This document shows, one piece after another, positions 8,069 through 34,242 of a stretch of 40,748 bases of DNA. The DNA is taken from positions 1 to 40,748 of the forward strand of contig MEVH01000014.1 in the NCBI GenBank assembly GCA_001772665.1, in the 5' to 3' direction. The position numbers were made by a program, and so were the translations under genes. The stretch is from a candidate division WWE3 bacterium RIFCSPLOWO2_01_FULL_39_13. GTDB lineage: Bacteria > Patescibacteriota > WWE3 > 2-01-FULL-39-13. How positions within the stretch are numbered: position 1 is the stretch's first letter; each line of letters starts with the position of its first letter. The notes beneath the pieces were generated by a model. It did no database searches, was not told the DNA's origin, and saw nothing but the letters and a program-made list of their open reading frames with translations.

Positions 8069-8143
8069 TCCGCGGTAGCTCAACGGTAGAGCAGAAAGCT
8101 GTTAACTTTAAGGTTGCTGGTTCGAATCCAGCCCGCGGAGCCA
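8069..8143 (+). tRNA. tRNA-Asn (anticodon GTT), CCA encoded
   Basis: Hand-folded cloverleaf: acceptor TCCGCGG/CCGCGGA, D arm GCTC-AACGGTA-GAGC, anticodon loop CTGTTAA (GTT), variable AGGTT, T arm GCTGG-TTCGAAT-CCAGC, discriminator G, CCA at 8141-8143. There is one G-A mismatch at the top of the anticodon stem. Confidence 0.9.
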
Positions 8144-9739
8144 GGATGGATCGGCAGGTGCAGAAAAGCCTGCTTTTGTAGTTATATCAACAAGTTCTAC
8201 TGGTTCGAGCCGTTCTTTTTCTTTATACTTCCCATCCGATGCGTTTTTGAGTATAAAAAATGGATTCTTCAGGTTAAATGAGATTTTTTTGTCCTTTAAG
8301 ATGAAGTTCGAGCCAACGTAATTTAGTATGTCCCTCTTATCCCTTAAAGTGCCGGTTTTGAATTTACTTGTTACATTTTGAGCAAGATCAAATGCATCTT
8401 CTACGTTATCGATCCAGTTCTTTTGCTGATAATTAGAATCGGTGAGCTTTTCTTGGCACTTATTCAGATCTGACTGCAGCCTTTCCTTTTTTTCACAGTA
8501 TTCTGTATCTGAAATATGTCCGTCTAGTTTGAGATCGAGCAGCTTGTCCAGCTTTTCTTTTATTGATTCTTCTTCACTTCTAAAATTGCTATTGATTTGA
8601 CCCCTGCTTTCAGATTCTCTCCTATGGGCTTCTTTTAGGTATTTTATAGTCCATTTCTTAAAGTCTTCATGTATTTCTATCTTCCCGAGAATCTCAAGTA
8701 TCTGGCTCTCTAGCTTTTTTGCTGTGATAGCTTTCTGTTTACACTTAATTTTCTTACTCTTTTTGGTGCAGTGATAATAATCGTAAATAGCAAGTCTCTT
8801 AGTTCTTGCGAAGTACTTTTCTCTATGTTCTGCTGTAATGGAACAATCGCATTCACCGCACTTGATCATTCCTGTAAACGGAAAGTCGTGATTCTGAGGG
8901 CGTTTTTTATCTGTTCTGCCTAGGAGTTGTTGAACTTTATCAAACTCTTCTTTTGTAACCATTGGTTTGTGCTTCCCATCGTACCATACACCGTTGACCT
9001 CAAACTTTCCATAATAAAAGGGGTTTGATAACAAGTCATATAGGCCGCTTCTTGAAATTGCTTTGCCACCTATTCTTTTTCTCTTGATGCTTGTGTAATT
9101 CCATTCTTCATCGGCGATTTTTGCTATCTCTGGTACTGTATTGGTTCCCGCAAGTGCTAAATCCCACATTTTTCTTACCAGCAGGAATCTTTTATGGTTG
9201 ACTGTAATGATTTTGTATCCTTTTTCTCTATCCGGGGTGTTCATGTAGCCTTGGGGGGCAACGAAAGGGTACCAGCCCATTTCCAGTTTCTTTTTAAGAC
9301 CTCTTTTAACATTTACGCCTTTTACATCGTTTTCAAACTTGGCATTTATCATAAAGAAGCCAAGCATCATTTTGCTCATAGGTTCATTTGGGAAGTCTTG
9401 CGAAGGAGTGATTATCCTTTCTAGGATCCCTTCGTCCAGCAATTGAGTTAGATTTGCACCATCGATTGGGTTTCTTGAAAGCCTGTCTGGTGACCATACT
9501 AGTATTCCTTGTGCTTTTCCCAATCTGATGTTTTCTAGCATGGTTTGATACTCTGGTCTGGATAGAGGCTTTTTAGCGCTTCTTGATTCCTGAATTATTT
9601 GAACTATTTCTAAATTTCTCTTATCTGCAATGTCTTTTAGTGCATCAATTTGAGATTCTAGCGATAGAACCTGTCGATCTTCGCGATCTGTAGATTTTCT
9701 TGTGTACATTATGTATTTGGTTTTATCTGTATCTTTCAT
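8108..9739 (-). CDS. large serine recombinase (integrase)
   Basis: 543-aa ORF with resolvase-type catalytic domain (YTRKSTDREDRQ, SLESQ, PDRLSRN), zinc ribbon CGECDC...YYHC and a long coiled-coil C-terminus. The last 36 nt are antisense to the tRNA-Asn 3' end. Confidence 0.9.
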   Translation of the reverse strand: MKDTDKTKYIMYTRKSTDREDRQVLSLESQIDALKDIADKRNLEIVQIIQESRSAKKPLSRPEYQTMLENIRLGKAQGILVWSPDRLSRNPIDGANLTQLLDEGILERIITPSQDFPNEPMSKMMLGFFMINAKFENDVKGVNVKRGLKKKLEMGWYPFVAPQGYMNTPDREKGYKIITVNHKRFLLVRKMWDLALAGTNTVPEIAKIADEEWNYTSIKRKRIGGKAISRSGLYDLLSNPFYYGKFEVNGVWYDGKHKPMVTKEEFDKVQQLLGRTDKKRPQNHDFPFTGMIKCGECDCSITAEHREKYFARTKRLAIYDYYHCTKKSKKIKCKQKAITAKKLESQILEILGKIEIHEDFKKWTIKYLKEAHRRESESRGQINSNFRSEEESIKEKLDKLLDLKLDGHISDTEYCEKKERLQSDLNKCQEKLTDSNYQQKNWIDNVEDAFDLAQNVTSKFKTGTLRDKRDILNYVGSNFILKDKKISFNLKNPFFILKNASDGKYKEKERLEPVELVDITTKAGFSAPADPSWLRGLDSNQQP

Positions 9740-11065: not shown

Positions 11066-11165
11066 AAGCCCCCAACTTCAGTCTGGGGATGAAAAGGCGG
11101 TCGCCAAAGGCAACCTCGCGAAGCGTAGGCATAGGAAGCCGCCAACTTTAGTTGGCGGTATTCAC
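11066..11165 (+). repeat. IS200/IS605-like hairpin mini-element (PATE-like), copy 1
   Basis: An imperfect hairpin CCCCCAAC-TTCA-GTCTGGGG followed by GATGAAAAGGCGGT resembles the left end upstream of tnpA at 40338-40372 (CCTCCAGC-TTCA-GCTGGAGG GATGGATAGGCGGT). A second hairpin GCCGCCAAC-TTTA-GTTGGCGGT lies at 11138-11159. Confidence 0.45.
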
Positions 11166-11893
11166 TAAGGAGTGAGAAGTTGTTTATAGCTTTCGATTGC
11201 TTGGTACACGCCTTGTTTTGTTATGTATTTATACTTCTTGGAAATTCCTGTATGGCCCATACCATGTTTCCACAGCCAGTACCACTCTCTATCACGCCTG
11301 ATGTTTCCTCTTGTGTCAAAGATCTTGAACTTACCTTTTAGAACAAGTTGTATATATTCCTTGGTTATTTTTGGGATTTGCTCGTAGTAGACCTTTTCGA
11401 CATCCTTGAGGGTGGTGCCTGGGTATAAAACAATAGACATCTCTGGTTTTGTTGAGCGGTTCCATTCGAGTGTTAAGTTCGCATGTGCTAATGGTAATGG
11501 TATCGCTGAACTGTGTTTATTGCAAAGTACAGCATTCATTATAGGTATCCAAAAATAAGGGGGTTTTTGGTACTTTGAACATAAATCATTTATGGTTTTA
11601 GTGAATTTAGTTTCTGGTCTAGAGTAGACTTTTCCGCCTGAATCTAAATTGTCGAAACTATTATTTGGAAATGTCACACCAAAAGCTTTACCTATTTCTT
11701 TACTGATCCACTTAGATCTGTCGTTTAGACTAATAGGTGACTTTAACCCTAGCTCCGCTCTAAATTTAACAACATCGAGGATGAAGTCTTCTCTGTCGAA
11801 TAGTGCAGCTAAGTTGGTATACAGCCAATCGTTATCAATTTTAATGCCGATTGGCAATTTGATTTTGTCTTGTTTTGTTTCCATGTTAAGCAA
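11165..11893 (-). CDS. hypothetical protein
   Basis: 242-aa ORF. The C-terminal RDREWYWLWKHGMGHTGISKKY segment may be HTH-like. No family recognised. Confidence 0.5.
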   Translation of the reverse strand: MLNMETKQDKIKLPIGIKIDNDWLYTNLAALFDREDFILDVVKFRAELGLKSPISLNDRSKWISKEIGKAFGVTFPNNSFDNLDSGGKVYSRPETKFTKTINDLCSKYQKPPYFWIPIMNAVLCNKHSSAIPLPLAHANLTLEWNRSTKPEMSIVLYPGTTLKDVEKVYYEQIPKITKEYIQLVLKGKFKIFDTRGNIRRDREWYWLWKHGMGHTGISKKYKYITKQGVYQAIESYKQLLTP

Positions 11894-12354: not shown

Positions 12355-12450
12355 ATATGGTAAATTGTTGTGAATATAACTGAATAATCAGTCGCCTGAA
12401 CCCGGGGAACCATCTTTGGGCGTGCCGTAAAAACCGATATGTACAAAAAA

Positions 12451-12512
12451 GTGAATACCGCCAACAGAAGTTGGCGGATTCCTTTGCAGCCTCTGACTGA
12501 AGTTTGAGACCT
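12451..12512 (-). repeat. IS200/IS605-like hairpin mini-element, copy 2 (inverted, shorter)
   Basis: GTGAATACCGCCAAC-AGAA-GTTGGCGG is the inverted counterpart of 11138-11165. A degenerate copy of the first hairpin lies at 12490-12511. Confidence 0.4.
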
Positions 12513-12594
12513 TAAACGGTATAGTATTATTCTGCATAAGAAAAAGACACCGAATCTACTTATAAGTTAATACTCCACCAGCACGGCCTATAGT

Positions 12595-12623
12595 TTGACT
12601 TTTGATGATAAAAATACTATAAT
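12595..12623 (+). promoter_or_regulatory. near-consensus sigma-70 promoter
   Basis: TTGACT (12595-12600), a 17-nt spacer, then TATAAT (12618-12623). A second candidate is TTGAGT 12785-12790, an 18-nt spacer, then TATAAT 12809-12814. Confidence 0.4.
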
Positions 12624-13043
12624 CCCCCCATTATCGCAACATATTCAATTGCTGAATACATCGTTACATATTGCACTTTTATATATGTATAGGACTACCG
12701 ATAAAAAGCAGACTAATTTTGCTCTTAAAGGTTCTATCTGTACAAAGACAAAAATAGAGGCGTTTATCTCTAGCGCAGGTTCTATTGAGTCTTACACCTG
12801 TCAAATCTTATAATTTCCCCTTTGAAAACTAAATACTTACTTGCCTGCATTAAGCTAAATAAATTGGCTTGATGGAGGAAAGTAAACTCCTTAGAAACCC
12901 ATAATTGCTATGGAATTTCTAAGCACATTAACATCGGGTCTAGCGCTCCTTAAGTATCATCCGTGCCGTTGAGTTAATCAATTAAGTTAGTCGAAGGATA
13001 AGTGATTAATTCACCGGCGCGGAAGAGAATAAGGAGAAATAAG

Positions 13044-13832
13044 ATGAAAAAGTTTGTGTTTGTGGCGATGTTTGCCACAATTTTGTTCGCTCTCGTACTG
13101 GGAGGAGCGGACGCAGGAGGAGGAATTTCGCCAGCTATTGTGGCGGAATTCGCCGGAACACCTCAGTACTGGGCTCCGGAGATATTTAATTCCGGGACGA
13201 TGACACTCACGCTGAAGCTTGGTGATGCTGGCTTTGACCAGTTGGATAGTGGACAGATGACTATCCGGTCTAGGACAAGTGGCGTTTTCAAGTTGCGTAA
13301 TGCGTGGGTGTGCGATGGGAAAACATGCCTCTGGGTCATGTACCTCCCACAGAGTACAGATGAACTGTGGATCGAAACGCCAGTGCAAGTTGACTGGACA
13401 GGCTTCGGCGCGTGGAAGGTACGAAGTGCCCAGGACGGGTTGTACAAATCCGAAGATGCCACGCAGATCTTGTTGCGGGTCAGCCCCCCTGTCTACCGTG
13501 ACTGGGGTGGTCAGTTCAATCCAACCTGGGATTGGGCGTTAGTTGCGGAACCACAGTGGGCTGCGGCTCAATGGCTCTGGTGGGATCAGGTACGCGTGGA
13601 GATTCGTACGACTTGCAGTGGGCATGGAGATAACCATCAAGGGTTATTTAAGTGGATCGGGGTTCCACCCTGGGGCAAATTCGGTAACGGGGTTTACCGT
13701 AATTGGCTCCATGAGCCTCTTGAGCAAGTAGACTGGTACATAGATCACCCCGGAGGTTGGTCCATGATAGGTACCACGTATGGTCCAACCTGTTGGGGGG
13801 GAATCACCTACCTGCCTTTAGCCTCACGCTAG
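13044..13832 (+). CDS. secreted Trp-rich protein of unknown function, GC-rich foreign gene
   Basis: ATG 13044 lies 6 nt after AAGGAGA (13031-13037). The N-terminus MKKFVFVAMFATILFALVLGGADA is signal-peptide-like. There are 19 Trp in 262 aa. A hand count of 13441-13500 gives 34/60 G+C. The ORF-track start at 13002 is an upstream in-frame extension. Confidence 0.7.
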   Translation: MKKFVFVAMFATILFALVLGGADAGGGISPAIVAEFAGTPQYWAPEIFNSGTMTLTLKLGDAGFDQLDSGQMTIRSRTSGVFKLRNAWVCDGKTCLWVMYLPQSTDELWIETPVQVDWTGFGAWKVRSAQDGLYKSEDATQILLRVSPPVYRDWGGQFNPTWDWALVAEPQWAAAQWLWWDQVRVEIRTTCSGHGDNHQGLFKWIGVPPWGKFGNGVYRNWLHEPLEQVDWYIDHPGGWSMIGTTYGPTCWGGITYLPLASR

Positions 13833-13843
13833 TCCCGAAACCT

Positions 13844-13924
13844 GGGAGGGTTAGAACAGTCGTTTGCGCTGTGCGCATCTGCCCGCGCTAAAATGCGCCA
13901 GCAACGACTTGTTCTTTCCCTCCC
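13844..13924. other. long imperfect GC-rich inverted repeat
   Basis: GGGAGGGTTAGAACAGTCGTT (13844-13864) pairs with AACGACTTGTTCTTTCCCTCCC (13903-13924). The loop contains smaller GCGC palindromes. Confidence 0.5.
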
Positions 13925-13966
13925 GCAGTTCCTTTTTATCTTAGAACTGCTTAGGATTTTTTCTTT
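13925..13966 (+). terminator. stem-loop plus T-run
   Basis: GCAGTTC (13925-13931) pairs with GAACTGC (13944-13950) and is followed by TTAGGATTTTTTCTTT. Confidence 0.45.
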
Positions 13967-14311
13967 ATATTCTTCAATCTCAGCCCTCACGCTATACACA
14001 TTCAAAACACTTCAGGCTTATTTCACTTACTTATTGTCTTTGACCTCCAAAAAGATAATCTGCCATTTTTTGGTTCGTGGACTCAGGAGAAAAGTTTGAT
14101 ATGGCGACTTTTTTTACTCTTTCCGAAACAGCAGCTCTTGCGTCAGGACTTAATCCCATAAAGGTTGTTATGTGCTGGCTTAATTTGACAAAATCTTCGT
14201 ATGGCATTGGTACGTTGGGATTATCCACAAGGTAACAATCTTGTTAAAAGTATGGTATGAGTTCAGCTGATCCTCGAGCATTAAAGCCTATTACTGGTAA
14301 ACCATGCGCTG
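13953..14311. repeat. 359-bp direct repeat R1 (partner 34293-34651)
   Basis: Gapless alignment at a constant offset of 20340 nt, roughly 85-90% identical by eye. The last ~150 nt are nearly identical. Confidence 0.85.
14031..14311 (-). pseudogene. glycosyltransferase 3'-end remnant
   Basis: Encodes ...VDNPNVPMPYEDFVKLSQHITTFMGLSPDARAAVSERVKKVAISNFSPESTNQKMADYLFGGQRQ, matching the C-terminus of the GT at 34371-35696. A premature stop is present (LIPYF*QDCYLV) and homology ends abruptly at 14311. Confidence 0.85.
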
Positions 14312-14393
14312 TAGGGTATAATCCATCAGATGAAGAAGTTTAGAAGTCAGTAGAATTTCAAGAAAAGGGGTTCAACCACGAAATTATAAAATA

Positions 14394-14732
14394 ATGGATA
14401 AAAAAGTATTTAATTATAGCGAGCTATTAACATTTCCGCCTGATTCAACAATAGGATCAGCCACAACCTCACCTTTAAGTAAAATCAACGGACCTCATAT
14501 ATTCTATGCTTATCAAGGAAACCCCACGTACACGTCACTTTCTAGTGTTGTGATGGGAACAGTTGTTGGGTGTAGAAATGGAAGCGACACTATACCCTAC
14601 AAATTTGATGCATGGCGAATTATATCTACAGGAACAGCTTCGCTTGTTCGTTATAAAGAAATTAAGAAAAATGATATACCTTATCACCACACCAACGAAA
14701 TACCAGAATGGAAAAATAAAAAACTACTATAA
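14394..14732 (+). CDS. hypothetical protein
   Basis: 112-aa ORF. No motif recognised. Confidence 0.4.
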   Translation: MDKKVFNYSELLTFPPDSTIGSATTSPLSKINGPHIFYAYQGNPTYTSLSSVVMGTVVGCRNGSDTIPYKFDAWRIISTGTASLVRYKEIKKNDIPYHHTNEIPEWKNKKLL

Positions 14733-15074
14733 GTCCACAAAACACCTTCTAACATCCTCTGCTATGTAGAGCCAGATAGAACAGGAAGCACATTCGAGTA
14801 TAGTATCGAAGGGACTTTTCAAGTCGTAGCGTATCTTTTCGCCATCCAGCGTACAATTCGAAAGTACAAGACTCAGAAGTTCCTTCTTTTGCTCAGGTTT
14901 CGAACTTTCAAACAGCTCGCTTGCCCGTGATGCGAGAGAAAGTATTGTGTTTGCAGTCACATAGTAGTCATCTTCAGCTTTGCTTAACTTTTCCAGTTGC
15001 TTAACAGCCTTATTCTTTGCACTCGTGTATCTTTCGTATCTTTTGTCGTATACATCGATAGTAATTCCCCGCAT
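14727..15074 (-). pseudogene. large serine recombinase, C-terminal fragment only
   Basis: 115 aa align to the C-terminal quarter of the 25302-26792 recombinase (ILSLASRASELFESSKPEQKKELL...WLYIAEDVRRCFVDL). No catalytic domain lies upstream. Confidence 0.75.
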
Positions 15075-15258
15075 GGTTTATAGGAGCCGGTAAGCCTGAC
15101 AACAGAAAAACACCTCACTGGAAGGTATATGGCGTAATCGCCACATTTATTTGGGTTTTGCTATTAGTTTTAGCAAATACAATTTTGTAGATGATTCTTG
15201 CGAAAAGAACTTAAAAATGCAACATGAAAAATATGTAAATCACCAGTTTTAATTTATA

Positions 15259-15792
15259 ATGGGTTTTATGAAAGTTAAATACGTAAAAGACTTCGAGTAT
15301 GACGCTTTTATGATATGGATTATGTTGAGCGATGATGATCCTTCTGGTGTTAAAAACCGTGCCAAGAGCATGGGGATCAGTAAGACCGAATTGAAGCGAA
15401 TTTATGGAGTGGAAGATTATCAAGATGCAAAAGGTTATGTTGAAAATCTTGCCAAGAAAAAATATTCAAAATGTGAAGAGGACATAGACCGCGTTATTCC
15501 TCTATACCAGAAAGAATGGGATAAGATTAACGACACCTTTTCTAGCGAGGTCGAAAAGGTAACCGGCAGAAAATGGAAATACAACATTTACAAGGTAGTG
15601 GTCGGCCCGTTCCATCCCGGGATAAGTACTCAGGAGGGGGATACTGTAGTGAGAAGTGCTTTTGAAGATTCAGAAGGACAAAAAAGAATAACAGCGCATG
15701 AAATACTCATGTCCCACATCTGGTGCATATTCTTTGAGAAATTATCCACAGCTCAAACCATTAATGAGCAAATTAAAAGGTATTTATCTTAA
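15259..15792 (+). CDS. hypothetical protein
   Basis: 177-aa ORF. No motif recognised. Confidence 0.45.
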   Translation: MGFMKVKYVKDFEYDAFMIWIMLSDDDPSGVKNRAKSMGISKTELKRIYGVEDYQDAKGYVENLAKKKYSKCEEDIDRVIPLYQKEWDKINDTFSSEVEKVTGRKWKYNIYKVVVGPFHPGISTQEGDTVVRSAFEDSEGQKRITAHEILMSHIWCIFFEKLSTAQTINEQIKRYLS

Positions 15793-15980
15793 AGAAACAG
15801 ATTTCAACGAGTATTTATCAAATAGCATGGTGGTGCTAAATAGTAAAGAGTATTCAAATAAAAGCCTTGCATAAAAGTGTAGCCACCACTACATTTATTT
15901 CTGATTCTACATGCTTGCGCTTGATGAAGCCGAAAATGTTTAGGGACTTGTATTTTAGTCTATTTTCTGGGATTTCCTAA

Positions 15981-16355
15981 TTAAGTGTTGTCTTTAGATT
16001 TTATTGTGGAGTTCTCTTCGAGATCTGTTATTAGTTGAGATAGTCTATCGGTTTCTTCCAGACGAGACCTTGGATTTGTTTGAGAGTCTGGATTGGGTAT
16101 TTCTAGTTTTGGAGCTAAATCAAGAATATTCTCTAATTCCGTACGGGTTTCCATATTGTCGATAGCTAGTAGTGACGTCACATAGTATGGATACATCATA
16201 TATCCAATTGTTCCTGCTTCGTATTGGTCTCTTAAGAAGGTTAAATAATCAATGATTGCGTTCCGTTGCTTCTCGGGTTCTGGGTCTAAAATCGCGTTCC
16301 ACTTTTCGGATAGTACTTCGTCTAGTTTTTTTAGGTTTAAGATTTCTTTCATCAT
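15981..16355 (-). CDS. hypothetical protein
   Basis: 124-aa ORF. No motif recognised. Confidence 0.45.
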   Translation of the reverse strand: MMKEILNLKKLDEVLSEKWNAILDPEPEKQRNAIIDYLTFLRDQYEAGTIGYMMYPYYVTSLLAIDNMETRTELENILDLAPKLEIPNPDSQTNPRSRLEETDRLSQLITDLEENSTIKSKDNT

Positions 16356-16647
16356 GGGTATTGTATAATAAATTACGATTTGATAAAGAGGCCAAATGCA
16401 GTGTGGTCTCCAGGGTGGTATGTGATTGATGAAGCATGCAAAAATAAAAGTTTCATAACACGGCAGGTTTTTTACGTGTTCTGTTATGAGGTTTTTATAC
16501 TCTCGATCAGGGCATATTAGACAATCCTCCGAAATAGTAGCGAATAGCTACACCTTAGCCCTGAATGAGTAAAAAAAGCCTCTGTGCCAAGCAGTTTCCT
16601 ACTGATAGTAGACGAACTGCTTGTCCGTCTCCTAAGATTGATGTGTA

Positions 16648-17370
16648 GTGTCGTTCACGCAAAAGATTATGGATAAAAAATACTTAAGAAAAATACGACA
16701 ATTAGGACTAACAGGAGAGCAGGTGCGCCATGCCTTTGTTGATGGTATACAGACTATGGTTGAAACCCGGGAAAAGATGGGATCTGACTGGAAATTAGGT
16801 CACGACAGGTACAGTATTGTGGACTTGGAGCGTCTTATTCCAGAAAGTCATAGGGTATTCAAGGATAGATCCGTATTTATTTTTGATGCAAAGTATGGAT
16901 ATTGTGTTACTAAAAAAGACTCTAAAGGGATTATGCGTATATATCTGGATTTCCCGTATAGGGATAAGTTTGATGCCGGAGAAGCCAGTTATTTAATCCA
17001 CGAGATCGGTCATTACATAACAAAAAATAGATCAAAGAAGACTAAATATGAGCGTGAATTGGAGGCAATAAAATTACAACTTAAATTTGACAATCAGGTT
17101 AAGAACAAAGATTCCCGTAATTATTTACGTTCACTGGATTTTGCGGAATATGTTCTGGGGTTTTATGAGTTTTATACGAAATGGCTAGGTCTTGAGCCTA
17201 TTACAGTGACGACTATTGTTAATGCGATTTTAAAGTTTGCGTATGAAGACATCGGAAAAATATACAAGGACGAAACACCGCTTGAGCTTGGATGGTACAC
17301 GGTTTACGGAGTCTGCCTAGCTGAATTATTGTTGAATAATACACGTTGTAAACCTATCCCAAAACTCTAA
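16648..17370 (+). CDS. hypothetical protein with HExxH zinc-metallopeptidase motif
   Basis: 240-aa ORF containing SYLIHEIGHYI (HExxH). The track start is GTG; an in-frame ATG at 16669 is an alternative. Confidence 0.5.
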   Translation: MSFTQKIMDKKYLRKIRQLGLTGEQVRHAFVDGIQTMVETREKMGSDWKLGHDRYSIVDLERLIPESHRVFKDRSVFIFDAKYGYCVTKKDSKGIMRIYLDFPYRDKFDAGEASYLIHEIGHYITKNRSKKTKYERELEAIKLQLKFDNQVKNKDSRNYLRSLDFAEYVLGFYEFYTKWLGLEPITVTTIVNAILKFAYEDIGKIYKDETPLELGWYTVYGVCLAELLLNNTRCKPIPKL

Positions 17371-17537
17371 GATGAATCGGTATTATTATGATTAAAGCCA
17401 AATCGTCAAAATTTTATGGTTTGCTAACTTGTATTTCCACCCTTTTTAACTTTTGAAAACGGGCTCCGCCCTCTTGCGGTTACGATGGTGTGGGCAACTG
17501 TCCTTACGATAGTTTCCGCATTAAATGTACATGGTTG

Positions 17538-17565
17538 TTGTAGTTTTGCGATTTTATCCTATAAT
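17538..17565 (+). promoter_or_regulatory. promoter of Cys-rich peptide gene, copy A
   Basis: TTGTAG (17538-17543), a 16-nt spacer, then TATAAT (17560-17565). The -10 box and downstream leader are conserved with copy B (34078-34083). Confidence 0.45.
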
Positions 17566-17599
17566 ATAGCGTAATCCTAAGGAAAGGAGGTAAAGGCAA

Positions 17600-17707
17600 A
17601 TGAGAATGCGCAAGCTCTGGCAGCGCGTCCGAGTCTGGGTGCATCGAGCCATTTGCGGTCGTTGCAAACGCGACGACCACTGTGGACACTGTCCCTGCTG
17701 TCGTTGA
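17600..17707 (+). CDS. 35-aa cysteine-rich peptide (copy A)
   Basis: GGAGG (17586-17590) lies 9 nt before the ATG. The peptide is MRMRKLWQRVRVWVHRAICGRCKRDDHCGHCPCCR*. All 6 nucleotide differences from copy B in the last 19 codons are synonymous. Confidence 0.7.
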   Translation: MRMRKLWQRVRVWVHRAICGRCKRDDHCGHCPCCR

Positions 17708-17733
17708 CAGCGGAGGTAAGTGGTTCACACTGG

Positions 17734-17798
17734 CCTGGGCGGTTATGTGGCTGACAAGCCAATTTACAAAACATAACCGCTCAGGATTTTCTCTTTTT
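17734..17798 (+). terminator. rho-independent terminator of peptide gene A
   Basis: 14-bp stem CCTGGGCGGTTATG (17734-17747) / CATAACCGCTCAGG (17772-17785) with one G-U pair, followed by ATTTTCTCTTTTT. Confidence 0.6.
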
Positions 17799-18080
17799 GC
17801 CCCAGTTTTTAAACGTTTCAAGGCTTTAACTCTTTTGTAGCGATCGTTTCATTTGTGGTAGTCATTCATAGTAATCTTCCTTAAGGCATTTATTTTACCT
17901 TAAGTGGTGCACTTCGTTTTAGAATCAACACAGTTTTTAGGTCTTGACACTGCTCCTGTATAATCGTTCTAACACTGTTCACGGTTCGGGTCAGGGAATG
18001 ATCCTAAATTTTTTAGGATGCTAATCAATTATTTGAAGTGTTACTGAGAAAACTTGATAAGAAATGATAAGGAAATGAAG

Positions 18081-20789
18081 ATGAATGAGGCGCAAACTCG
18101 AAAAAAATATATAGACGAGAAACTTAAAAAGGCGGGTTGGAAAAACATCATTCCATATGCCCCTGACCTCGATATTTCAAAACTCCACAAAACAGCTATA
18201 GAAGAATACCCAACTGAAAGAGGGCCTGCTGACTATGGCTTATTTTTACAAGGAATGTTAGTTGGAATAGTAGAGGCAAAAAAATTAGCCGTGGGGCCTC
18301 AAAATGTGCTCATGCAGGCTCATAGGTATGCCGATGCAATGGTTTTAAGGGATTCAGGGGCGCCTCCTTATGGAGTTCCATTCATCTACTCAACAAATGG
18401 CACTGTTATTTGGTTTGAGGATTTAAGGCATGATTACAGTAGGTCAAGAAAAGTAGCCGGATTTCATACACCAGAAGCAATAGATGAATTTATGAATTTT
18501 GACCTCAACACAAAGTTAGACTGGTTTACTAACAATCCACCAAATGCAAAAAAGCTAAGGTACTACCAAAAAGAAGCCATAGAAAATATTGAGAAAGCAA
18601 TACAGCAGAACAAAAGAGCAATGCTTGTTGCTATGGCTACTGGTACGGGAAAAACATACACGGTTGCATCTTTGATTTACAGGTTACTAAAATCAGGGGC
18701 TAGTAAAAGAGTCCTGTTTTTGGTTGATAGAAAGGCTTTGGCGGCGCAAGCTGTAACCGAATTTGCTTCATACGAGACTGAGGATAATCTGAAATTTAAT
18801 CAGATATATCAAGTATATAGCCAACAATTTCAAAATGGCTTTTTTAGCGCCGATGAGAAAATTGATTTTACTGTATTACCAAATTCATATCTTACCAATC
18901 CAGACGGGAGTCAGGTTTTTGTTTATGTAAGCACAATCCAAAGAATGAGAATTAATCTTTTTGGTAAAGAAGGAATGTTCTCGGAAAGCGGAGATTTTGA
19001 CCCAGAAGATGATGCAGACAAGCTGGATATCCCTATTCATGCTTTTGATACCATAATTGCAGATGAATGCCACAGAGGTTACACGGCAGAAGAAACCAGC
19101 AAATGGCGAGAGGTATTAGATCATTTCGATGCCACGAAAATAGGCTTAACAGCAACTCCTGCTGCACACACAACATCATATTTTAAAAATATTGTATACA
19201 GATATCCTTACGAGAAAGCGGTTCAAGATGGGTATTTAGTCGATTATGATGCTGTGAAAATTAATTCGGGCATCAGGTTGCAAGGACTAACAATCAAGGC
19301 AGGTGATGAAATAGAAAACATCGATCCAGATACTGGTGTACAACAACTAGACCTTCTAGAAGACGAAAAACAATTTGAGGCTTCTGATATAGAACGAAAG
19401 GTTACCTCTCCAGATAGCAACAGAAAGATAATCGAAGAGATAAAAAAATATACAGAAGAGCACGAAAAAGAAACTGGAAGATTTCCTAAAATATTAATTT
19501 TTGCCCATAACGATTTACAACACACATCACACGCAGATCAAATAGTAGACCTTTGTCGAGATGTCTTTGGTAGAGGCGATGCGTTTGTCCAGAAAATTAC
19601 AGGAGCACCAAATGTTGATAGGCCATTGCAAAGAATAAAAGAGTTTAGAAATAGACCTGATCCACACATTGTTGTTACGGTAGATATGTTAACTACAGGA
19701 GTAGATATACCTGCACTCGAATACCTCGTTTTTATGAGATCTGTTAAGTCAAGAATTCTATTTGAACAAATGATGGGTAGAGGCACTAGACTTTGTAAGC
19801 AATTTCCAAACGGTTTAGATACACCACCAAAGACTAACTTTACGGTTTTCGATTGTTTCGGAGGCACACTTTTAGAAAGTTTTAGAAATGAAACCGGAAT
19901 AACAGAAACCGCACCTCTTTTACCAACACGGTCTCTTGAACAAATAATTGAAGATATTAGCAATAATGTTGACCTTGAGTACAATACTCGCTGTTTAATA
20001 AAGCGGCTTCAAAGGATAAATAAAACAATAACGGCAGAAGGCCGGGAAATGTTAGAAAAGTTTATAGAAGATGGCGATATAGGCGAATTTGCAAAGAATT
20101 TACCCGAAATGCTCGATAATGAAAGGGGCAAAACTCTAAAGCTTCTTACTAACCAAGAGTTTATAAATTTTCTTAGAAACTATCCTAGAGCTCCAAGGCG
20201 ATTTATTAAGGCTATTGAGTCAGAAGATACTGTTACTTCAGAATATGTATTTAGAACAACTGATGGAAAAGAATTAAAAATAGGAGATTATATAGAGGCT
20301 TTCGAAAGGTTTGTAAAAGAAAATCCCGAGCATGTAGAAGCGATCTCTATAGTATTGGATAAGCCCAAAAAGTGGGGCACACAGGCTCTAAGAGAGCTTA
20401 GAGCATCTCTTAGACAACAACCCGAGAGGTTTACAGAAGACAATTTAAGAAAGGCATATAAATACCCGCTTGCCGATATTATCTCAATGGTCAAGCACGC
20501 AGGAAAAGATGAACCTATTTTATCTGCAAAGGAACGTATTGATCTTGCTATAGAGAAGGTTTTTGGTAACACTAAACTATCTCCTCAACAAGAAAAGTGG
20601 GTTTCGTTGATAAGCTCACATTTAATAGAAAATTTAACTATAGAAAAGGAAGATTTTAACAATATGCCAATATTTGTTGATAGTGGAGGTAGTTTTCAAA
20701 AGGTTAATCGAGATTTCGATAATAATTTAGAGGTGTTTATTAATCAGATAAATTTGGCAATACCGGAGGTTTACGCTTATGCAAAATAA
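18081..20789 (+). CDS. hsdR: type I restriction enzyme, R subunit
   Basis: N-terminal NEAQTRKKYIDEKLKKAGW, Walker A MATGTGKTYT, DEAH-like IIADECHRG and motif VI QMMGRGTR. ATG 18081 is preferred because AAGGAA lies 6 nt upstream. The ORF track starts at TTG 18054. Confidence 0.9.
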   Translation: MNEAQTRKKYIDEKLKKAGWKNIIPYAPDLDISKLHKTAIEEYPTERGPADYGLFLQGMLVGIVEAKKLAVGPQNVLMQAHRYADAMVLRDSGAPPYGVPFIYSTNGTVIWFEDLRHDYSRSRKVAGFHTPEAIDEFMNFDLNTKLDWFTNNPPNAKKLRYYQKEAIENIEKAIQQNKRAMLVAMATGTGKTYTVASLIYRLLKSGASKRVLFLVDRKALAAQAVTEFASYETEDNLKFNQIYQVYSQQFQNGFFSADEKIDFTVLPNSYLTNPDGSQVFVYVSTIQRMRINLFGKEGMFSESGDFDPEDDADKLDIPIHAFDTIIADECHRGYTAEETSKWREVLDHFDATKIGLTATPAAHTTSYFKNIVYRYPYEKAVQDGYLVDYDAVKINSGIRLQGLTIKAGDEIENIDPDTGVQQLDLLEDEKQFEASDIERKVTSPDSNRKIIEEIKKYTEEHEKETGRFPKILIFAHNDLQHTSHADQIVDLCRDVFGRGDAFVQKITGAPNVDRPLQRIKEFRNRPDPHIVVTVDMLTTGVDIPALEYLVFMRSVKSRILFEQMMGRGTRLCKQFPNGLDTPPKTNFTVFDCFGGTLLESFRNETGITETAPLLPTRSLEQIIEDISNNVDLEYNTRCLIKRLQRINKTITAEGREMLEKFIEDGDIGEFAKNLPEMLDNERGKTLKLLTNQEFINFLRNYPRAPRRFIKAIESEDTVTSEYVFRTTDGKELKIGDYIEAFERFVKENPEHVEAISIVLDKPKKWGTQALRELRASLRQQPERFTEDNLRKAYKYPLADIISMVKHAGKDEPILSAKERIDLAIEKVFGNTKLSPQQEKWVSLISSHLIENLTIEKEDFNNMPIFVDSGGSFQKVNRDFDNNLEVFINQINLAIPEVYAYAK

Positions 20790-25301: not shown

Positions 25302-26792
25302 TTAACCCACATAACACTTCCTAACATCTTCGGCTATGTAGAGCCAGGAAGAACTATTGACCGATTCTGCTATTGTGTCGAAAGATTTTATCCAGTCATA
25401 ATGCAGGTTTTCATCATCTAAAGACAAGTTCTGAAGTGCGGTATTTATTAAGACCCTTTTTTGCTCTGGTTCAGAACTTTCAAACAGCTCTCTCGCCCTT
25501 GAGGCAAGGTTAAGCACGTAATTTGCGTTGATATAATAGGTTTCGTCGGCTTCACGGGTATTAGACATTTTTCTTTCCAAACTTTCTTGCTTGGTACGAT
25601 ACTCTTTTCGTTTTTTTTCATAGAAGCTATTAGTAATACTACGGTCGAGCATGTCTTCGTACATCCTTTCGATTCTTGTTTCGTATTTTTGGTATTCGGT
25701 TTGGTACCTTTCGTGTAAATCCTTCTGAAAATGCTTTTTATCTTCGTGAGATTCTTTTAATGATTTGGTTATTTCATCAACAGCTTCTTGTGGAAGCTTA
25801 ATTTGACCGAATATATCAAGGAATCGTTGTGTAAGTGTGTTCTCGTTTAACCATTTTGCGTCGTGCTTGCCTTGGTATTGAGTGCAATGATAGTACACAT
25901 ACTGCCCCTTTTTCTTTTCAGGAGTAATCATGCAACCGCATACTGAACATCTTATTAGGCCTCTGTATAAATAGGGTAGCCCGGCATATTTGAATTTTTT
26001 CTTATTATGCCCGGCCTTTACTTCCTGAACTGCATCAAAAAGCTCCTTGGAAACAATTCGGTCGTATTTATGTGGATACAATTGCCCGTCATATAACATT
26101 GTTCCGTGATAGAACGGGTTTCTTAGGATTTGATCTACTTTGCTTTTGGTGCATTTCAGGTTGAAGATCTCGACCAGCTTATTTCTGATCTCTAACATTG
26201 AATAGCTTTTAGTTGAGTACCATTCAAAGATTTTCTTTACAATCTCTGCTTCTGGTTGTTCGATCTCTATCCACTTTTTATTTTTATCTATGTCTACATT
26301 TCTGTATCCAAAGGGAGCCTTCCCTGGCCACTCGCCATTTTCTAGCTTTCTTTGCGCTGTAATTTTCGAATCTTCTTTCAGCCGGTTAAGATATTGCTTG
26401 GCAAGGTATACCTTCGTGTCCCAGTCGGTAATATCCCTGCCTACAGAGTTTTTGTCTATGACAAGCCTATCGTAAACGAAATGGATCTCTTTATCGTAAT
26501 CAAGCCTTAATTCATCTATAGCGACGGCATCTCTGTAATTTCTTGTTATGCGGTCTACACGATAGGCGATAATTGCTTTAACATCATCGTTGGCTTTTAC
26601 AAAATCAAGCATTTCCTTAAATTTTCTTCTTATCTTGTAATCGGCACTTTCGCTAAATACATACTCGATAGTTTTATTAAATCCTTTTTCTTTTGCGTAT
26701 TCCCTTAGCATCGGTAACTGAATATCTTGTAAAGATAAACCTTCTTTTTCTTGTCTTAGGGTTGATACACGGGCTAGGATGACGGCTTTCAT
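25302..26792 (-). CDS. large serine recombinase (integrase)
   Basis: 496-aa ORF with catalytic ILARVSTLRQ, VDRITRN, zinc ribbon CSVCGC...YYHC and a coiled-coil C-terminus. Its start overlaps the upstream gene's stop (ATGA 26789-26792). Confidence 0.92.
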   Translation of the reverse strand: MKAVILARVSTLRQEKEGLSLQDIQLPMLREYAKEKGFNKTIEYVFSESADYKIRRKFKEMLDFVKANDDVKAIIAYRVDRITRNYRDAVAIDELRLDYDKEIHFVYDRLVIDKNSVGRDITDWDTKVYLAKQYLNRLKEDSKITAQRKLENGEWPGKAPFGYRNVDIDKNKKWIEIEQPEAEIVKKIFEWYSTKSYSMLEIRNKLVEIFNLKCTKSKVDQILRNPFYHGTMLYDGQLYPHKYDRIVSKELFDAVQEVKAGHNKKKFKYAGLPYLYRGLIRCSVCGCMITPEKKKGQYVYYHCTQYQGKHDAKWLNENTLTQRFLDIFGQIKLPQEAVDEITKSLKESHEDKKHFQKDLHERYQTEYQKYETRIERMYEDMLDRSITNSFYEKKRKEYRTKQESLERKMSNTREADETYYINANYVLNLASRARELFESSEPEQKRVLINTALQNLSLDDENLHYDWIKSFDTIAESVNSSSWLYIAEDVRKCYVG

Positions 26793-28273
26793 CGTAAATA
26801 CTCTTTTGTAACTATTTTATCGATCTCTTTCATTAGCTTGTCTGTTTCGGTTAGCGCAACAATTATTTTCTGATAATGTTCGATGTCTGAATTATTAAGT
26901 GTCCTTCCTTTACGATCTTTTAGCCACTTTTGAGCGGGTTGGTAGCCTCCAATGTAAAAATTCCAGGCGACTTCCGAGATATTCCCAAAATATTGGCTGG
27001 AATTGATAAAAACGTTCCCTTCCTTATATTCTATTTTTTCTACTGTATCGGAACCTGCTATCGGATAAGTAGTAATAAGTTTGTTTACCTTTGGCGATTC
27101 TAGCAAATGAAGTGCCCTAAGTTCCGAGCCAAGACTTACTAACTTTCGAAAGCTATTTTTATCTTTCGGATAAGGCAAGCGCGGAAAATCAATTTTTAAG
27201 AACTCCTTGTATTTTTGTCGATATTTTGGAGAATGCAAAACAGCGTAAATATAGTCAAAAATATCTTCCGGCGAGACCTTGCCGACAGTTACTTCTATTT
27301 CATCGACTATTTCTTTTTTGAGGTTTGAGGTTCTAGTTCCATCTTCATAATAAAGATAAAGAGGGAAAGCATAGCCTGTTTCTTTTGTTTGTAGTGAAAC
27401 GGCACAAATATCAACGATATCTTTAGTTATAAAGGCATGTTGAAAACTAAAGGTGCTCTGTTGCCTGCAGGTTAACAGGGCAAGGTTATCTTTTGAAACG
27501 AGATGTTTGAAGACTTTTCGACCTGGTCTGCTGACTAAAGATGGGTCGTAGTAGATCCATCGGTAATCGAATGGCCTATATTGAATTTGCTTTATGTAAC
27601 CTTCATTGAAGGATTTTCTTTTTAATCTTTCGGTTAACTTATAGCTACTTGAGTCAATAACACGAAATGTTTGTTTGAAATTTTCGTCATAATCACCAGA
27701 CAAAAGTTTTTGCATTCTAAACTCCAAAGAATCTTTGTTCCTATCAATGAATAACGCATCCCTGTCGGTTTTTACTCCAGAGTTTGAGATTGGGAATATC
27801 TCATCAACTACGAACCCTTTTTCATATTCTTCATTCGCACCAAAATCTTTAGGTACAAAGAAATAATTCGGGTGGGAATAATTAAGCTTCTCCCATATAA
27901 CATTTTTTATAGTGCTTTCGTTGAGTTTCTTAAATTTGAATTCTTGTGTCCCATAAATTTCGGCATGGCGGACTGTTCCTAAGTCAACCTGTTTCCCGTC
28001 CTTACGAATCAATATATTGATTGATACTCCCTGCTCAATATTGAACACGTTCTCATCCTTGCTACCATTAGGTGCATGTTCTTTCTTTTTGGTACTCCCA
28101 TGAAGATCAAGAATGTAAATATCGTCAAATGTTTCTAGCAGATGCTTTCTCATCTGGCGATGAGTGACCCCGTCGATAAAAGAATTGTTTGTGATCATAG
28201 CGACAATTCCACTCCCATTCTTCTCTATAAAATGTTCTGCGAAACGGATAAACTTAATGTAGTCGTCATCCAA
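26789..28273 (-). pseudogene. type IIG/ISP-like R-M enzyme, C-terminal part (downstream of in-frame TAG)
   Basis: DDDYIKFIRFAEHFIEKNGSGIVAMITNNSF...LDLHGSTKKKE... and the C-terminal IGGYQPAQKWLKDRKGRTL element are typical of single-chain N6-adenine R-M enzymes. The frame is continuous with 28328-29875 through a single TAG. Confidence 0.8.
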
Positions 28274-28327
28274 GTTGATTTTTCTTTCATTTAGCCCTTC
28301 TTTGTATACCTTAATAAGATTCTGTAT

Positions 28328-29875
28328 CTATTTGCCTTTATTGGAGGAACTGACACTATATGGGGGGTTTCCCATTACAACCATTATTGGTTTTTCATTT
28401 TTAATTCTAGAGGCTTCTTTAGCTTCTTCGGCAATACTAGCACCGAAGTCGAATGCCAGAAGTTCAGGCTGGTTAGTTACCTCTTCGAGAGAATTTGTTA
28501 AGTAGATGCCAAGTCTGGCTTTACCCATGCGGGTTTCGTTAAAGTATAAAAAACCTGTTTCCTTAAGTGCCATGCTGAGTTTTAAGTGCGCGATGGTGTA
28601 TGGAGCCATCATTAATTCGAAACCGTATATCCGTGGGAGTAATTCATGGTGCACATATGAAGGCCAACGTCCTTTCTGTCCAGAGTTTTTGATCCGGGTG
28701 TATATTTTGCCTATAACATCGCTGATAAACGTTCCAGTTCCTACTGCGGGATCAAGTATCTGGACTTTGTGAAGGCCGTTACTGGTTCTTGCCGTATTTG
28801 CGAGACCTTTGGGTAAGTTAAATTCGTTTTCGAGAAGATAGTCAACCGAGCGCACTATAAACTGTACAACCGGAAGTGGAGTATAGTAGGCACCCATCCT
28901 TTTTCGCAAGTCGTCGTCATACTCTTTTAAGAAGTCTTCGTAGAAATGGATTACTTGATCCTGTGCACGTTGAGTTCCTTTTTTGATAGTATTTTTGAAG
29001 TATTGACCCATGAGTTTAGCAACATCTGCATGGGTATATACCTCGCATAATTCATCTACTATGTATGAAAGTTGTTTTTCGAAATTTCTGCCTGCTATAT
29101 GGTCGAAAAAATGACCTAAAAATGGATTAGAAGCAGGAATGAGTTCTCTGGCTTCTTGTCGACTAAAAGTGTTCAATGATTTGTCATAGAAACGGGCAAC
29201 AAAGAGTCCATATACCAGGGTTTGGGCGTACATATCAGCAAAGGTATCGGGTGTGAGATCATGTACAAGCAGTCTTTTAATAGTTTCGTATAAATTCATG
29301 AGTTCGAAATTTTTGCCTGATTCTGTTGCAAGGATTTGTCGCATATTATCCCTTATTCTTTGTCCTTTACCTCCCATTATTTTTGCAAGGTGCTTTCCAG
29401 AACGGATTGGTTCTTTATGTGATGCTGTAAAATCGAGCAATGTCTTTGCAATGTATTCGTAGTTCTCTGGTTCAGGAGTTATTGTTCGTTTCTTTATATC
29501 GTGGGTTCCGATTGTAATAGGTTCTCCATAAGGCAAACCGTTTCTATAGAATCTGAATTCAAGATAATCAGTGAGGATCAAGTTCGCATAGCCGTAGTAT
29601 CTAGACATTTGCTCCGATTTCTCGATCTTATCCAAAGACTCACCGATATCCTTTGTTTCGATATAGAGAATTGGAATATCGTTTTTTATTACGACAAAGT
29701 CTGGTTTGTTGCCTTTTCTTGCTTTAGGGTCGTGGTCAAACCTGTGGACATTGATTTCCTTAAATACTTCTCTGAGCATGATCTCAAAGTCAGCTCGATA
29801 GCCATATTCGGATGTTTCATCATGGGAGAATTTGATTGAAATCGATTGGATATAGTTTTCTAAAGTCTCCTTCAT
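28328..29875 (-). pseudogene. type IIG/ISP-like R-M enzyme, N-terminal part (nuclease-like module plus MTase motifs I-IV)
   Basis: PD-(D/E)xK-like PDFVV...LYIETKD, SAM motif ILDPAVGTGTF and catalytic MGNPPYS. It ends at TAG 28328-28330. Confidence 0.8.
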
Positions 29876-32812: not shown

Positions 32813-33517
32813 ATGAAGTTAAAGATACCAGCATATACGATTTTTAAAGAGGAAATTTTTAAGAAGTTAACTTCAAAGAGGAAAAATGCCTTGTTTTGCT
32901 GGTCTTTGTTAGATACTTCAAGCTGGGAAGAGATACCTCCTAAGTATTACCCGGACTATAAAAACGGTCACAAGAAAGTAATTGAGATTATGAAAATGGG
33001 CAAAAGCATAAAAGAATTAGTAGATGAGGATATGAATTACTTTATTAGAAGATTTGTAAACGGCGAATTTCTCAGCAATTTTTTATTAGCTGCTGAGCTT
33101 GAAAATCAGCTGGATAGTTCTTGGAGGCTTGACTTAGATAACCTACAGCAAGCTGTATTCCCTGATGTTCTATTTATAAGTAAGTCCAACAGTAGAAAGG
33201 TAAACATCGAAGTAAAGGGAGTGATTAGCGCCTCGAATTTGAAAAACAGGATAGAAGATGAGGTAATACCGCATTTAAGAGATGAAAATTATAAGGAGTT
33301 TGTATTGTTACTATTGTTTCCTGTTTGTCCTGGGGAAAATCCTAATAGGGTTAATCAGCTGATCGAAGGTTATTATATTTATGAGACGGTGATGAACAAG
33401 GGTGGACAAAAAGTCTTATGTCAGTGTATTAAGCAAGATGCGGACGGTGACAGAAAAGCATTTTCTTTAGAGAAGTTAGTAGGTCGTTTGATTGCCGGGT
33501 ATTTTAGTAAGGCTTGA
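32813..33517 (+). CDS. hypothetical protein with PD-(D/E)xK-like motif
   Basis: 234-aa ORF. FPDVLFISKSNSRKVNIEVKGV fits the D...ExK restriction-endonuclease-fold core. Confidence 0.45.
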   Translation: MKLKIPAYTIFKEEIFKKLTSKRKNALFCWSLLDTSSWEEIPPKYYPDYKNGHKKVIEIMKMGKSIKELVDEDMNYFIRRFVNGEFLSNFLLAAELENQLDSSWRLDLDNLQQAVFPDVLFISKSNSRKVNIEVKGVISASNLKNRIEDEVIPHLRDENYKEFVLLLLFPVCPGENPNRVNQLIEGYYIYETVMNKGGQKVLCQCIKQDADGDRKAFSLEKLVGRLIAGYFSKA

Positions 33518-33529
33518 ATTGCTTAGTTA

Positions 33530-34027: not shown

Positions 34028-34054
34028 CCTTATGTCTATAAGTACCCCATAATA

Positions 34055-34083: not shown

Positions 34084-34117
34084 ACGTCGTAATCCTAAAG
34101 AAAGGAGGAAAATTGTC

Positions 34118-34219: not shown

Positions 34220-34242
34220 CAGCGAGCAATGACCCGCACCGG

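Follow-up and report, generated by a model that had tools for sequence, protein, structure and literature searches.

The window analysed here, namely the whole stretch of 40,748 nt of contig MEVH01000014.1 (assembly GCA_001772665.1, candidate division WWE3 bacterium RIFCSPLOWO2_01_FULL_39_13), carries two copies of a small cassette, copies A and B, each of which almost certainly encodes a translated cysteine-rich micro-protein. Together with two relatives from metagenomes, these copies constitute a new and tiny family, which is restricted to the candidate phyla radiation (CPR) and belongs to no named family. The peptide is under purifying selection and the predicted fold of its mRNA is conserved with compensatory changes. 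We consider it probable, with ample room for doubt, that the cassette produces a translationally gated, metal-binding micro-protein from a self-occluding mRNA that is itself under selection.

The micro-protein gene and its four variants

Copies A and B form a single repeat (17544-17796 versus 34062-34306; 79.6 % identity, E = 3e-53), and their similarity, as judged from the alignment, is far beyond chance. The homology spans from about 16 nt before the -10 box (17544) to the T-run. The open reading frame (ORF) of copy A, its TATAAT box, the GGAGG located 9 nt before the ATG, the 14-bp stem and the T-run, all listed in a preliminary description of this DNA, were found in place, and the second ORF that it reported was recognized as part of the same repeat.

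Relatives were found using a 20-mer taken from the loop and 3' arm of the terminator, which matched the locus L005 among genome contigs and the loci L008 to L012 among metagenome contigs. Two of these loci contain homologous peptide genes, encoding MLQKLWQCARRILEYICGRCRRDDHCGRCCCCR in L009 and MQKLLQGARKLWHYVVCGRCKRDDHCGHCECCKNQR in L011 (identical to L012). The L011 peptide (P0006), which had already been called as a gene in a Joint Genome Institute (JGI) metagenome, and one repeat artefact were the only hits of an exhaustive HMMER search among 1.84 billion representative proteins; P0006 led to a further identical copy, L023, equal to L011 and L012. The family comprises four known distinct sequences (A, B, L009, and L011), which come only from uncultured CPR/Patescibacteria DNA. 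The predicted transcription units are about 210-227 nt long and contain ORFs of 33-37 residues, each with a -10 box, a Shine-Dalgarno sequence (SD), and a terminator hairpin.

Several features of the four variants bear on translation. Frame +1 is open in all four and is the only frame for which this is true; as most of the six frames are stop-free in this GC-rich stretch, openness alone is weak evidence. The spacing between GGAGG and AUG is exactly 9 nt in every variant although the spacer sequences differ, the indels within the ORF are all whole codons, and six cysteines (C-x2-C-x5-C-x2-C-x-C-C) are invariant despite switches between TGC and TGT. In L009, an arginine is kept via a two-base change (CGC to AGA). 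The Cys core of copies A and B differs at six nucleotides, which fall on codon positions 1/2/3 as 0/0/6 and are all synonymous (six synonymous and no nonsynonymous differences; Sd = 6, Nd = 0), precisely as had been described. For the six pairwise comparisons of the core among the variants, the corresponding counts were 0/0/6, 3/3/7, 1/1/5, 3/3/6, 1/1/7, and 3/3/10.

The ratio of nonsynonymous to synonymous substitution (dN/dS, Nei-Gojobori) was 0-0.14 in the 16-codon core and 0.11-0.24 overall, with the proportion of synonymous differences (pS) at 0.60-0.75, which is near saturation. The N-terminal half was more variable (dN/dS 0.27-0.65), with the cationic amphipathic pattern kept. Because the frame, the SD-AUG spacing, and the six cysteines are kept and dN/dS is low, the peptide is, by sequence comparison, almost certainly translated and under purifying selection. 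These data uphold the earlier proposal of a translated gene, and neither frame-breaking indels nor equal substitution rates at all codon positions were seen among the four variants. Other frames were considered and rejected: the antisense ORFs at 17504-17821 and 33935-34267 are not conserved, the A/B differences falling on their first codon positions, and a short antisense ORF starting in the terminator loop stops after seven codons in copy B.

The G+C content of cassettes A and B is 0.52 and 0.51, respectively, versus 0.38 for the whole window. The hand counts reported previously (37/60 G+C for 17601-17660 and 20/60 for 18061-18120) are exact; the conclusion drawn from them, that the cassette is compositionally foreign, did not stand. 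As a G+C content of 50-52 % is common to all four variants, in four unrelated contexts, it need not mean foreign origin, and it may be explained by the GC-rich fold together with the Cys, Arg, and Gly codons. The promoter attributed to copy A was borne out in part: the -10 box is present, but the -35 region is poor and a consensus promoter scan calls no full promoter there, whereas it calls one for copy B.

The peptides are basic and hydrophilic, with a net charge of +5 to +8 (copy A, +8) and a grand average of hydropathy (GRAVY) of -0.45 to -0.91 (copy A, -0.76). Their N-terminal hydrophobic moment of 0.6-0.8 indicates an amphipathic, cationic segment, and the top Kyte-Doolittle mean of any 11-residue window is 0.27-0.82, corresponding to no hydrophobic helix. 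AlphaFold2 placed a helix at residues 4-24 of copy A with a mean predicted local distance difference test (pLDDT) score of 70. All four variants contain two or more CxxC pairs in a protein of fewer than 70 aa, and H-x3-C-x2-C is present in A, B, and L011, with E-x3-C-x2-C in L009. With this spacing, the six-cysteine cluster probably binds metal, and the metal-binding micro-protein considered in the preliminary description appears to be a reasonable reading.

The narrow distribution of the family was observed in searches of several kinds. The A and B peptides, fused into a single query, had no relative among 5.8 billion protein clusters in a word-indexed search, and an exact look-up of both peptides as called genes returned no record. 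In the contigs carrying copy B (L001, L003, and L004), the gap between the flanking genes is left without a gene call, and contigs with the SocA-like neighbour of copy B hold only copies identical to B. No relative was found in plasmids and phages (blastn with the cassette, tblastn with the peptide), and back-translated peptide motifs had no match in 185,579 species-representative genomes. Viral contigs were scanned five times; four scans gave no match, and the fifth gave seven 17-mer matches, which were rejected as chance by a covariance model. The 20-mer matches L006 and L007 were also rejected as chance, being coding-looking stretches without the hairpin 5' arm and the T-run.

The motif had been described as one that belongs to no named family, and this was confirmed. 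No family match was found for the peptides in Pfam, NCBIfam (one sub-cut-off match, copy A), PADLOC, or PHROGs, nor any match in a PDB sequence search, and Rfam gave nothing at the gathering threshold over the window and nothing at E <= 5 over 12400-18100. No cassette was found beside homologues of the glycosyltransferase adjoining copy B or in the rpoD-linked regions of related genomes, and the 240-aa protein encoded upstream of copy A had no exact match on record. At the orthologous locus of a WWE3 metagenome-assembled genome (MAG; L005/L008), the flanks are 85-87 % identical and the peptide cassette is absent; on account of this presence/absence polymorphism, the peptide gene is accessory.

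Predicted fold of the messenger RNA

When folded singly, the four transcripts gave one common architecture of four hairpins, with z-scores of -7.1, -7.2, -6.0, and -8.2 against dinucleotide shuffles, none of 200 of which folded as well. In this predicted architecture, a closing stem (P0) is formed by the SD and the pyrimidine-rich 3' tail, and the first hairpin (H1) pairs the AUG region with codons 16-19. H2 is formed within the codons G-R-C-K-R-D-D, H3 pairs the codons C-G-H-C-x-C-C with the 3' untranslated region (UTR), the stop codon of copy A being located at its apical loop, and H4 is the terminator. The H4 stem of copy A has its arms at 17734-17747 (cctgggcggttatg) and 17772-17785 (cataaccgctcagg), followed by attttctcttttt, giving 14 bp plus one pair in the minimum free energy (MFE) fold. 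Its inner part contains a GGCU/AGCC mini-hairpin and the unpaired AAUUUACAAA, and a terminator scan misses H4 only owing to its 24-nt "loop".

The pairing probability of the AUG was 0.86-0.95 in copy A and, per base, 0.79-1.00 across the variants, except for the A of AUG in L011 (0.37). For the SD, the first three bases (G1-A3) had probabilities of 0.81-1.00, and the last two went down to 0.30-0.71 in A, B, and L011. In addition, the UCCU of the leader is conserved in all four variants, and a local 4-bp UCCU/AGGA hairpin of about -3.2 kcal/mol is predicted in the four nascent RNAs. Each mRNA is predicted by these folds to hide its own ribosome-binding site and start codon.

Compensatory changes were found in several parts of the fold. 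Three of the six synonymous A/B differences fall in H3 and are compensated by the 3' UTR arm (U-A to C-G, A-U to G-C, and C-G to U-A); the remaining ones are a G-C to G-U change in H2 and two changes in loops. With its partner in the 3' UTR, the wobble base of the Gly codon in H3 forms A-U, G-C, or U-A, depending on the variant. The outer arms of H1 are almost wholly different between B (AAAUUGUC/GGCAAUUU) and L011 (GAGCUACG/CGUGGUUU), yet both pair. Counted on a model-guided alignment of the four sequences, 88 % of the alignment cells were paired, versus 38-46 % with slid partners; helix 4 (H2) had 94 % of its cells paired, and helix 5 (H3) had four pairs changed on both sides. Overall, eight pairs were changed on both sides, compared with 3.8 +/- 1.5 in shuffles, of which 3/500 reached eight. 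As read from these alignments, coding and RNA-structure constraints act on the same bases. RNA structure had previously been offered as the alternative to coding that compensatory changes would indicate; such changes exist, yet coding holds too.

In the explanation we favour, each copy would be a free-standing transcription unit, from promoter to terminator, for a micro-protein of 33-37 residues with an N-terminal cationic amphipathic helix and a C-terminal six-Cys cluster flanked by His, which would chelate a metal, Zn(II) being the likeliest. The mRNA itself would be selected for its closing stem P0 and the hairpins H1-H4, the leader UCCU would also cover the SD in the nascent RNA, and translation is predicted to be strongly gated or kept low from a compact RNA that is probably stable. 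The unit is an accessory one that has been copied to unrelated sites, and in the window it is present twice, at junctions of defence modules in the island.

A number of points weigh against this explanation. The covariation statistics are weak with only four distinct sequences, and the pairs were counted on an alignment fitted to the copy A structure. The P0 helix (helix 1) shows no compensatory change, and a purine-rich SD could pair with a U-rich tail without selection. The structures, the promoter, and the terminator are all predictions. On the protein side, AlphaFold2 confidence is moderate and the Cys tail is not resolved, and metal binding is deduced from Cys/His spacing alone; one report on haloarchaeal C(P)XCG mini-proteins states that several of them bind no zinc and that such motifs are unreliable predictors (PMC11241148). 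Finally, as the genomic contexts are unrelated, no function is readable from the neighbours.

Alternative explanations

The foremost alternative, which we hold to be unlikely, is a module similar to type I toxins, in which the peptide would be harmful, for example via a cationic helix acting on membranes or nucleic acids, the mRNA fold would block translation until processing or remodelling, and the RNA antitoxin would have gone unrecognised. Type I toxin mRNAs such as hok/Sok, aapA1/IsoA1, dinQ, and timPR are self-contained units of about 200-400 nt with ORFs of fewer than 40 aa, often multi-copy, unannotated, and located in islands; the cassette is likewise a small self-contained unit with an ORF of fewer than 40 aa, occurs in several copies, and is accessory and situated in an island. 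It also resembles them in being translationally inert by prediction, with the SD covered and the start codon in a stem, as toxin mRNAs are described in the literature (PMC8594479; PMC5416894, PMC5066626). The determinants of toxin mRNAs in T1TAdb include a nearby anti-SD, a 5'-3' long-distance interaction, and a buried start codon (PMC8594479), and the SD and AUG of the cassette are predicted to be sequestered by a local anti-SD together with a 5'-3' interaction. The strongly amphipathic, cationic N-terminal helix would also suit a toxin.

Hydrophobicity, which is among the criteria for predicting type I toxins in work cited by T1TAdb (PMC8594479), separates the two: unlike type I toxins, the cassette product is hydrophilic, basic, and Cys-rich, without a hydrophobic or membrane-spanning helix, and it shows no detectable sequence similarity to any described family. 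No conserved antisense RNA was found, and consensus scans, by which CPR promoters and trans-encoded RNAs are not excluded, detected no antisense promoter conserved in the homology unit of about 250 bp, only a weak 9/12 match in copy B. As no A-run precedes the stem, the terminator is not a bidirectional one, and selection on the invariant Cys6 cluster suggests a folded, ligand-binding product and not a membrane-inserting one.

A small regulatory zinc-finger protein, either a minimal relative of the zinc-binding anti-sigma (ZAS; zf-HC2) factors with H-x3-C-x2-C or a nucleic-acid-binding zinc knuckle acting on transcription or RNA, seems very doubtful. The basic peptide, with a helix followed by a Cys/His knuckle, would fit this role, and small regulators of the kind are known, such as Brz of Halobacterium (PMC2253796). 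The motif is present in three of the four variants; however, the His is not invariant, being replaced by Glu in L009, and the only supporting family match, that of copy A to the NCBIfam anti-sigma model NF052368 (E = 0.0028), scores 17.4 bits against a cut-off of 50 bits and is accompanied by no Pfam match. With 33-37 aa, the peptides have about one third of the length of an anti-sigma domain, and no sigma-factor gene could be recognised among the scanned neighbours, most of which have no Pfam match.

The haloarchaeal C(P)XCG proteins and Brz resemble the family in having fewer than 70 aa, with two or more CxxC pairs as their chief recognisable trait, and in being often missed by annotation, and their functions are reported as regulatory or unknown (PMC11241148, PMC2253796). 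In contrast to them, the cassette motif, C-G-R-C-x5-C-G-H-C-x-C-C, lacks the C(P)XCG consensus, the host is a bacterium of the CPR, and only four variants are known. The DnaJ central-domain-like mini-proteins (Anti-TRAP type) have the terminator in common with the family via the sister cassettes described below, and the peptides have neither the CXXCXGXG repeat nor detectable similarity to them.

The other readings fare far worse. A structured non-coding RNA with an incidental ORF, the coding signal of which would be a by-product of the GC-rich fold, would account for the very strong fold z-scores, the compensatory changes, the stop-free frames of the GC-rich stretch, the uncalled gap in L001, L003, and L004, and the fact that the exact A and B peptides are on record nowhere as gene products. 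It is highly improbable: pairing has no three-base periodicity, yet the core differences cluster on third positions, the core dN/dS of 0-0.14 coexists with near-saturated synonymous sites, the arginine is kept via CGC to AGA, the indels are whole codons, and the SD-AUG distance is fixed at 9 nt despite a differing spacer.

A precursor of a ribosomally synthesised and post-translationally modified peptide (RiPP) or bacteriocin, whether ranthipeptide- or sactipeptide-like or a leaderless cationic bacteriocin, had also been put forward for this short, Cys-rich, cationic peptide, and we find it scarcely plausible: no maturase (radical-SAM or other), no protease or ABC exporter, and no immunity gene turned up beside any of the four variants, no SCIFF or other precursor model in NCBIfam or Pfam matched at E <= 10, the neighbours are unrelated, and the whole 33 aa are conserved without a leader/core organisation.

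It is hardly credible, lastly, that the cassette is a leader peptide/attenuator or an anti-restriction factor tied to the downstream type I restriction-modification (R-M) operon, although copy A, a short ORF with a terminator behind it, precedes hsdR on the same strand by 346 nt: a TTGACA/TATAAT-like sequence belonging to hsdR itself lies at about 17946-17968 (seen by eye and not listed by the promoter scan), convergent genes follow copy B and the L011 cassette, no R-M genes adjoin the cassette in other contexts, PADLOC and PHROGs gave no match, and purifying selection covers the whole peptide, unlike in a stalling leader. The location upstream of the R-M operon, to which attention had been drawn earlier, looks incidental. 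The neighbourhoods of the window copies, L009, and L011 are unrelated to each other, and Pfam scans of the neighbours, most of them without any match, identified no maturase, exporter, or sigma factor, so that a tie of the cassette to R-M systems, maturases, or transporters is not supported.

Sister cassettes, genomic setting, and significance

Sister cassettes with a terminator almost identical to that of the peptide cassette occur at L005:169-438, L008:1931-2188, L010:380-717, and L011:4566-4860 (minus strand). The -10 box and leader are similar to those of the peptide cassette in the L005/L008 and L010 sisters and differ in the L011 sister. Their ORFs are unrelated to the peptide and encode DnaJ-type CXXCXGXG mini-proteins of 70-76 aa, of which only the L010 one matches PF00684, and weakly (E = 5.7e-6; 26.9 bits versus a cut-off of 32.7); the four Cys6 peptides have no PF00684 match. 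The mRNA of the L010 sister has no SD:tail closing stem. The zinc-finger ORF of L005:206-400 and L008 looks frameshifted between its CXXCXGXG halves, the second half, CGGTGTRTRRCPTCHGSGKS, being in another frame, and could be a pseudogene, an assembly error, or a case of recoding.

The 3' half of the terminator (AUUUACAAAACAUAACCGCUCAGGAUU; ATTTACAAAACATAACCGCTCAGGATT) is nearly invariant, and changes in its 5' arm are uncompensated. At L011:2400-5500 (minus strand), a unit of flank plus cassette is duplicated in tandem, with a zinc-finger ORF in the upstream copy and the Cys6 ORF in the downstream copy; the duplicated flanking genes are only 69 % identical, and the two terminators are clearly more alike, as read off an alignment and not computed. 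This conservation suggests, on sequence grounds, that the terminator is subject to gene conversion or serves a second function, and it is partly a matter of ascertainment in that the search 20-mer lies within the terminator, although A, B, and the L011 sister were not found in that way. One further idea, which we regard as quite unlikely, is a translation-locked CPR micro-gene cassette in which a shared terminator "handle" and the -10/leader would frame interchangeable small Cys-rich ORFs, of the Cys6 type or of the DnaJ-type zinc-finger kind found in the sisters. The terminator could then be recognised by a protein, an RNase, or a recombination process that copies or swaps cassettes, and the Cys6 product would act off the membrane as a metal-dependent effector or toxin, made only once the RNA is remodelled.

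The window consists of a chromosomal part followed by an island. The genes pyrG, dnaG, and rpoD are located in the chromosomal part, the named-organism relatives of its RpoD are WWE3, Parcubacteria, or Patescibacteria, and the terminator 20-mer of the cassette matches the WWE3 MAG (L005); these markers assign the host to the CPR/Patescibacteria. The 3' end of a gene for a 543-aa large serine recombinase (8108-9739, minus strand) overlaps the 3' end of a tRNA-Asn gene (Table 1), which is the likely integration point of the island. In the related genomes L025 and L026, a similar recombinase immediately follows rpoD. The island contains three large serine recombinases, a type I R-M system, a split Type ISP enzyme, a SocA/Panacea-domain gene with its upstream neighbour, and a GT4 "conflict" system, and copies A and B are each placed at a junction between such modules.

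Table 1. Coordinates of the cassette parts and of other features in the window; hairpins, pairings, promoter-like sites, and terminators are predictions
Feature	Position	Strand	Remarks
tRNA-Asn (GTT)	8069-8143	+	Chromosomal part
Decayed terminator remnant of a third cassette	13945-13962	+	3' arm and T-run, gaactgcttaggattttttcttt
Copy A, -10 box TATAAT	17560-17565	+	CCTATAATA conserved in A, B, and L009
Copy A, anti-SD UCCU in 5' leader	17575-17578	+	Predicted to pair with AGGA of the SD
Copy A, SD GGAGG	17586-17590	+	9 nt before AUG
Copy A, hairpin H1	17596-17656	+	Outer stem GCAAAUG/CAUUUGC, joining the start codon to codons 17-19
Copy A, ORF	17600-17707	+	35 aa, MRMRKLWQRVRVWVHRAICGRCKRDDHCGHCPCCR, then stop; read from sequence
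Copy A, hairpin H2	17657-17678	+	GGUCGUUGC-AAAC-GCGACGACC, wholly within codons G-R-C-K-R-D-D
Copy A, hairpin H3	17681-17729	+	5' arm, codons C-G-H-C-P-C-C-R; 3' arm, 3' UTR
Copy A, terminator hairpin H4 and U/C-rich tail	17734-17798	+	15-bp stem in MFE fold
Copy B, promoter-like site TTTACC-17 nt-TATAAT	34055-34083	+	Full -35/-10 call by consensus scan
Copy B, SD GGAGG	34104-34108	+	9 nt before AUG
Copy B, ORF	34118-34219	+	33 aa, MRKFWRCVKKLVHQAICGRCKRDDHCGHCPCCR, then stop; read from sequence
Copy B, terminator hairpin and U-rich tail	34243-34306	+	Stem 34243-34256 / 34282-34295

Immediately upstream of copy B (32813-34027, plus strand), genes for an unknown 234-aa protein and a 165-aa SocA/Panacea-domain protein form a couple that looks like a possible toxin-antitoxin pair. 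Between copy B and a truncated recombinase, 34371-39365 holds a candidate "conflict system" consisting of a GT4-conflict glycosyltransferase, an S-adenosylmethionine (SAM) methyltransferase, a polyprenyl synthetase, an unknown 395-aa protein, and a NUDIX hydrolase, and a Daviesbacteria genome (L021) has a similar gene set. Within 39373-40701, the truncated recombinase ORF (312 aa) lacks the N-terminal resolvase domain, has 86 % DNA identity to 25341-26213, and is followed by an IS200-like Y1 transposase fragment (40402-40701). The Type ISP enzyme (26789-29875, minus strand) appears split into an HSDR_N/N6_Mtase ORF (515 aa) and a Type_ISP_C ORF (494 aa), a serine recombinase gene (25302-26792) overlaps the stop codon at this locus, and the identical split is found in the metagenome contigs L001/L002.

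In the region before copy A, two 38-nt inverted repeats (11129-11166 / 12450-12487; 89 % complementary), each with its own GC-rich hairpin, lie on either side of two unknown genes on the minus strand (242 aa and 149 aa). The gene at 13045-13832 (plus strand) has a G+C content of 50-60 % versus 38 % for the window and a long terminator hairpin of its own (about 13830-13925); its product begins with a clear signal peptide (MKKFVFVAMFATILFALVLGGADA...) and is not matched by Pfam, and it sits exactly where a cassette would be expected; the GC-rich stretch 13000-13940 was also considered as a large non-coding RNA, which was rejected in favour of this gene. The segment 13945-14311 is a decayed duplicate of the copy B terminator 3' arm and the 3' end of the glycosyltransferase gene (90 % to 34285-34651), and 14735-14936 is a decayed duplicate of the 3' end of a serine recombinase gene (71 % to 25307-25508); going by these similarities, the two segments are an eroded older module junction.

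Impact is limited by the very small size of the family unless a role is found. The present analysis adds a verified, unannotated micro-protein family to the CPR/Patescibacteria, whose small proteome is essentially unexplored. One short sequence here answers to two overlapping constraints, those of the protein and of the mRNA structure. In such a sequence, a "synonymous" change is no longer neutral, and dN/dS or covariation, taken singly, gives an incomplete picture. The predicted type-I-toxin-like locking of the ribosome-binding site, a hydrophilic Cys6 peptide, and no recognisable antisense partner together place the cassette outside existing categories, and it may serve as a concrete object for understanding how CPR bacteria gate translation.

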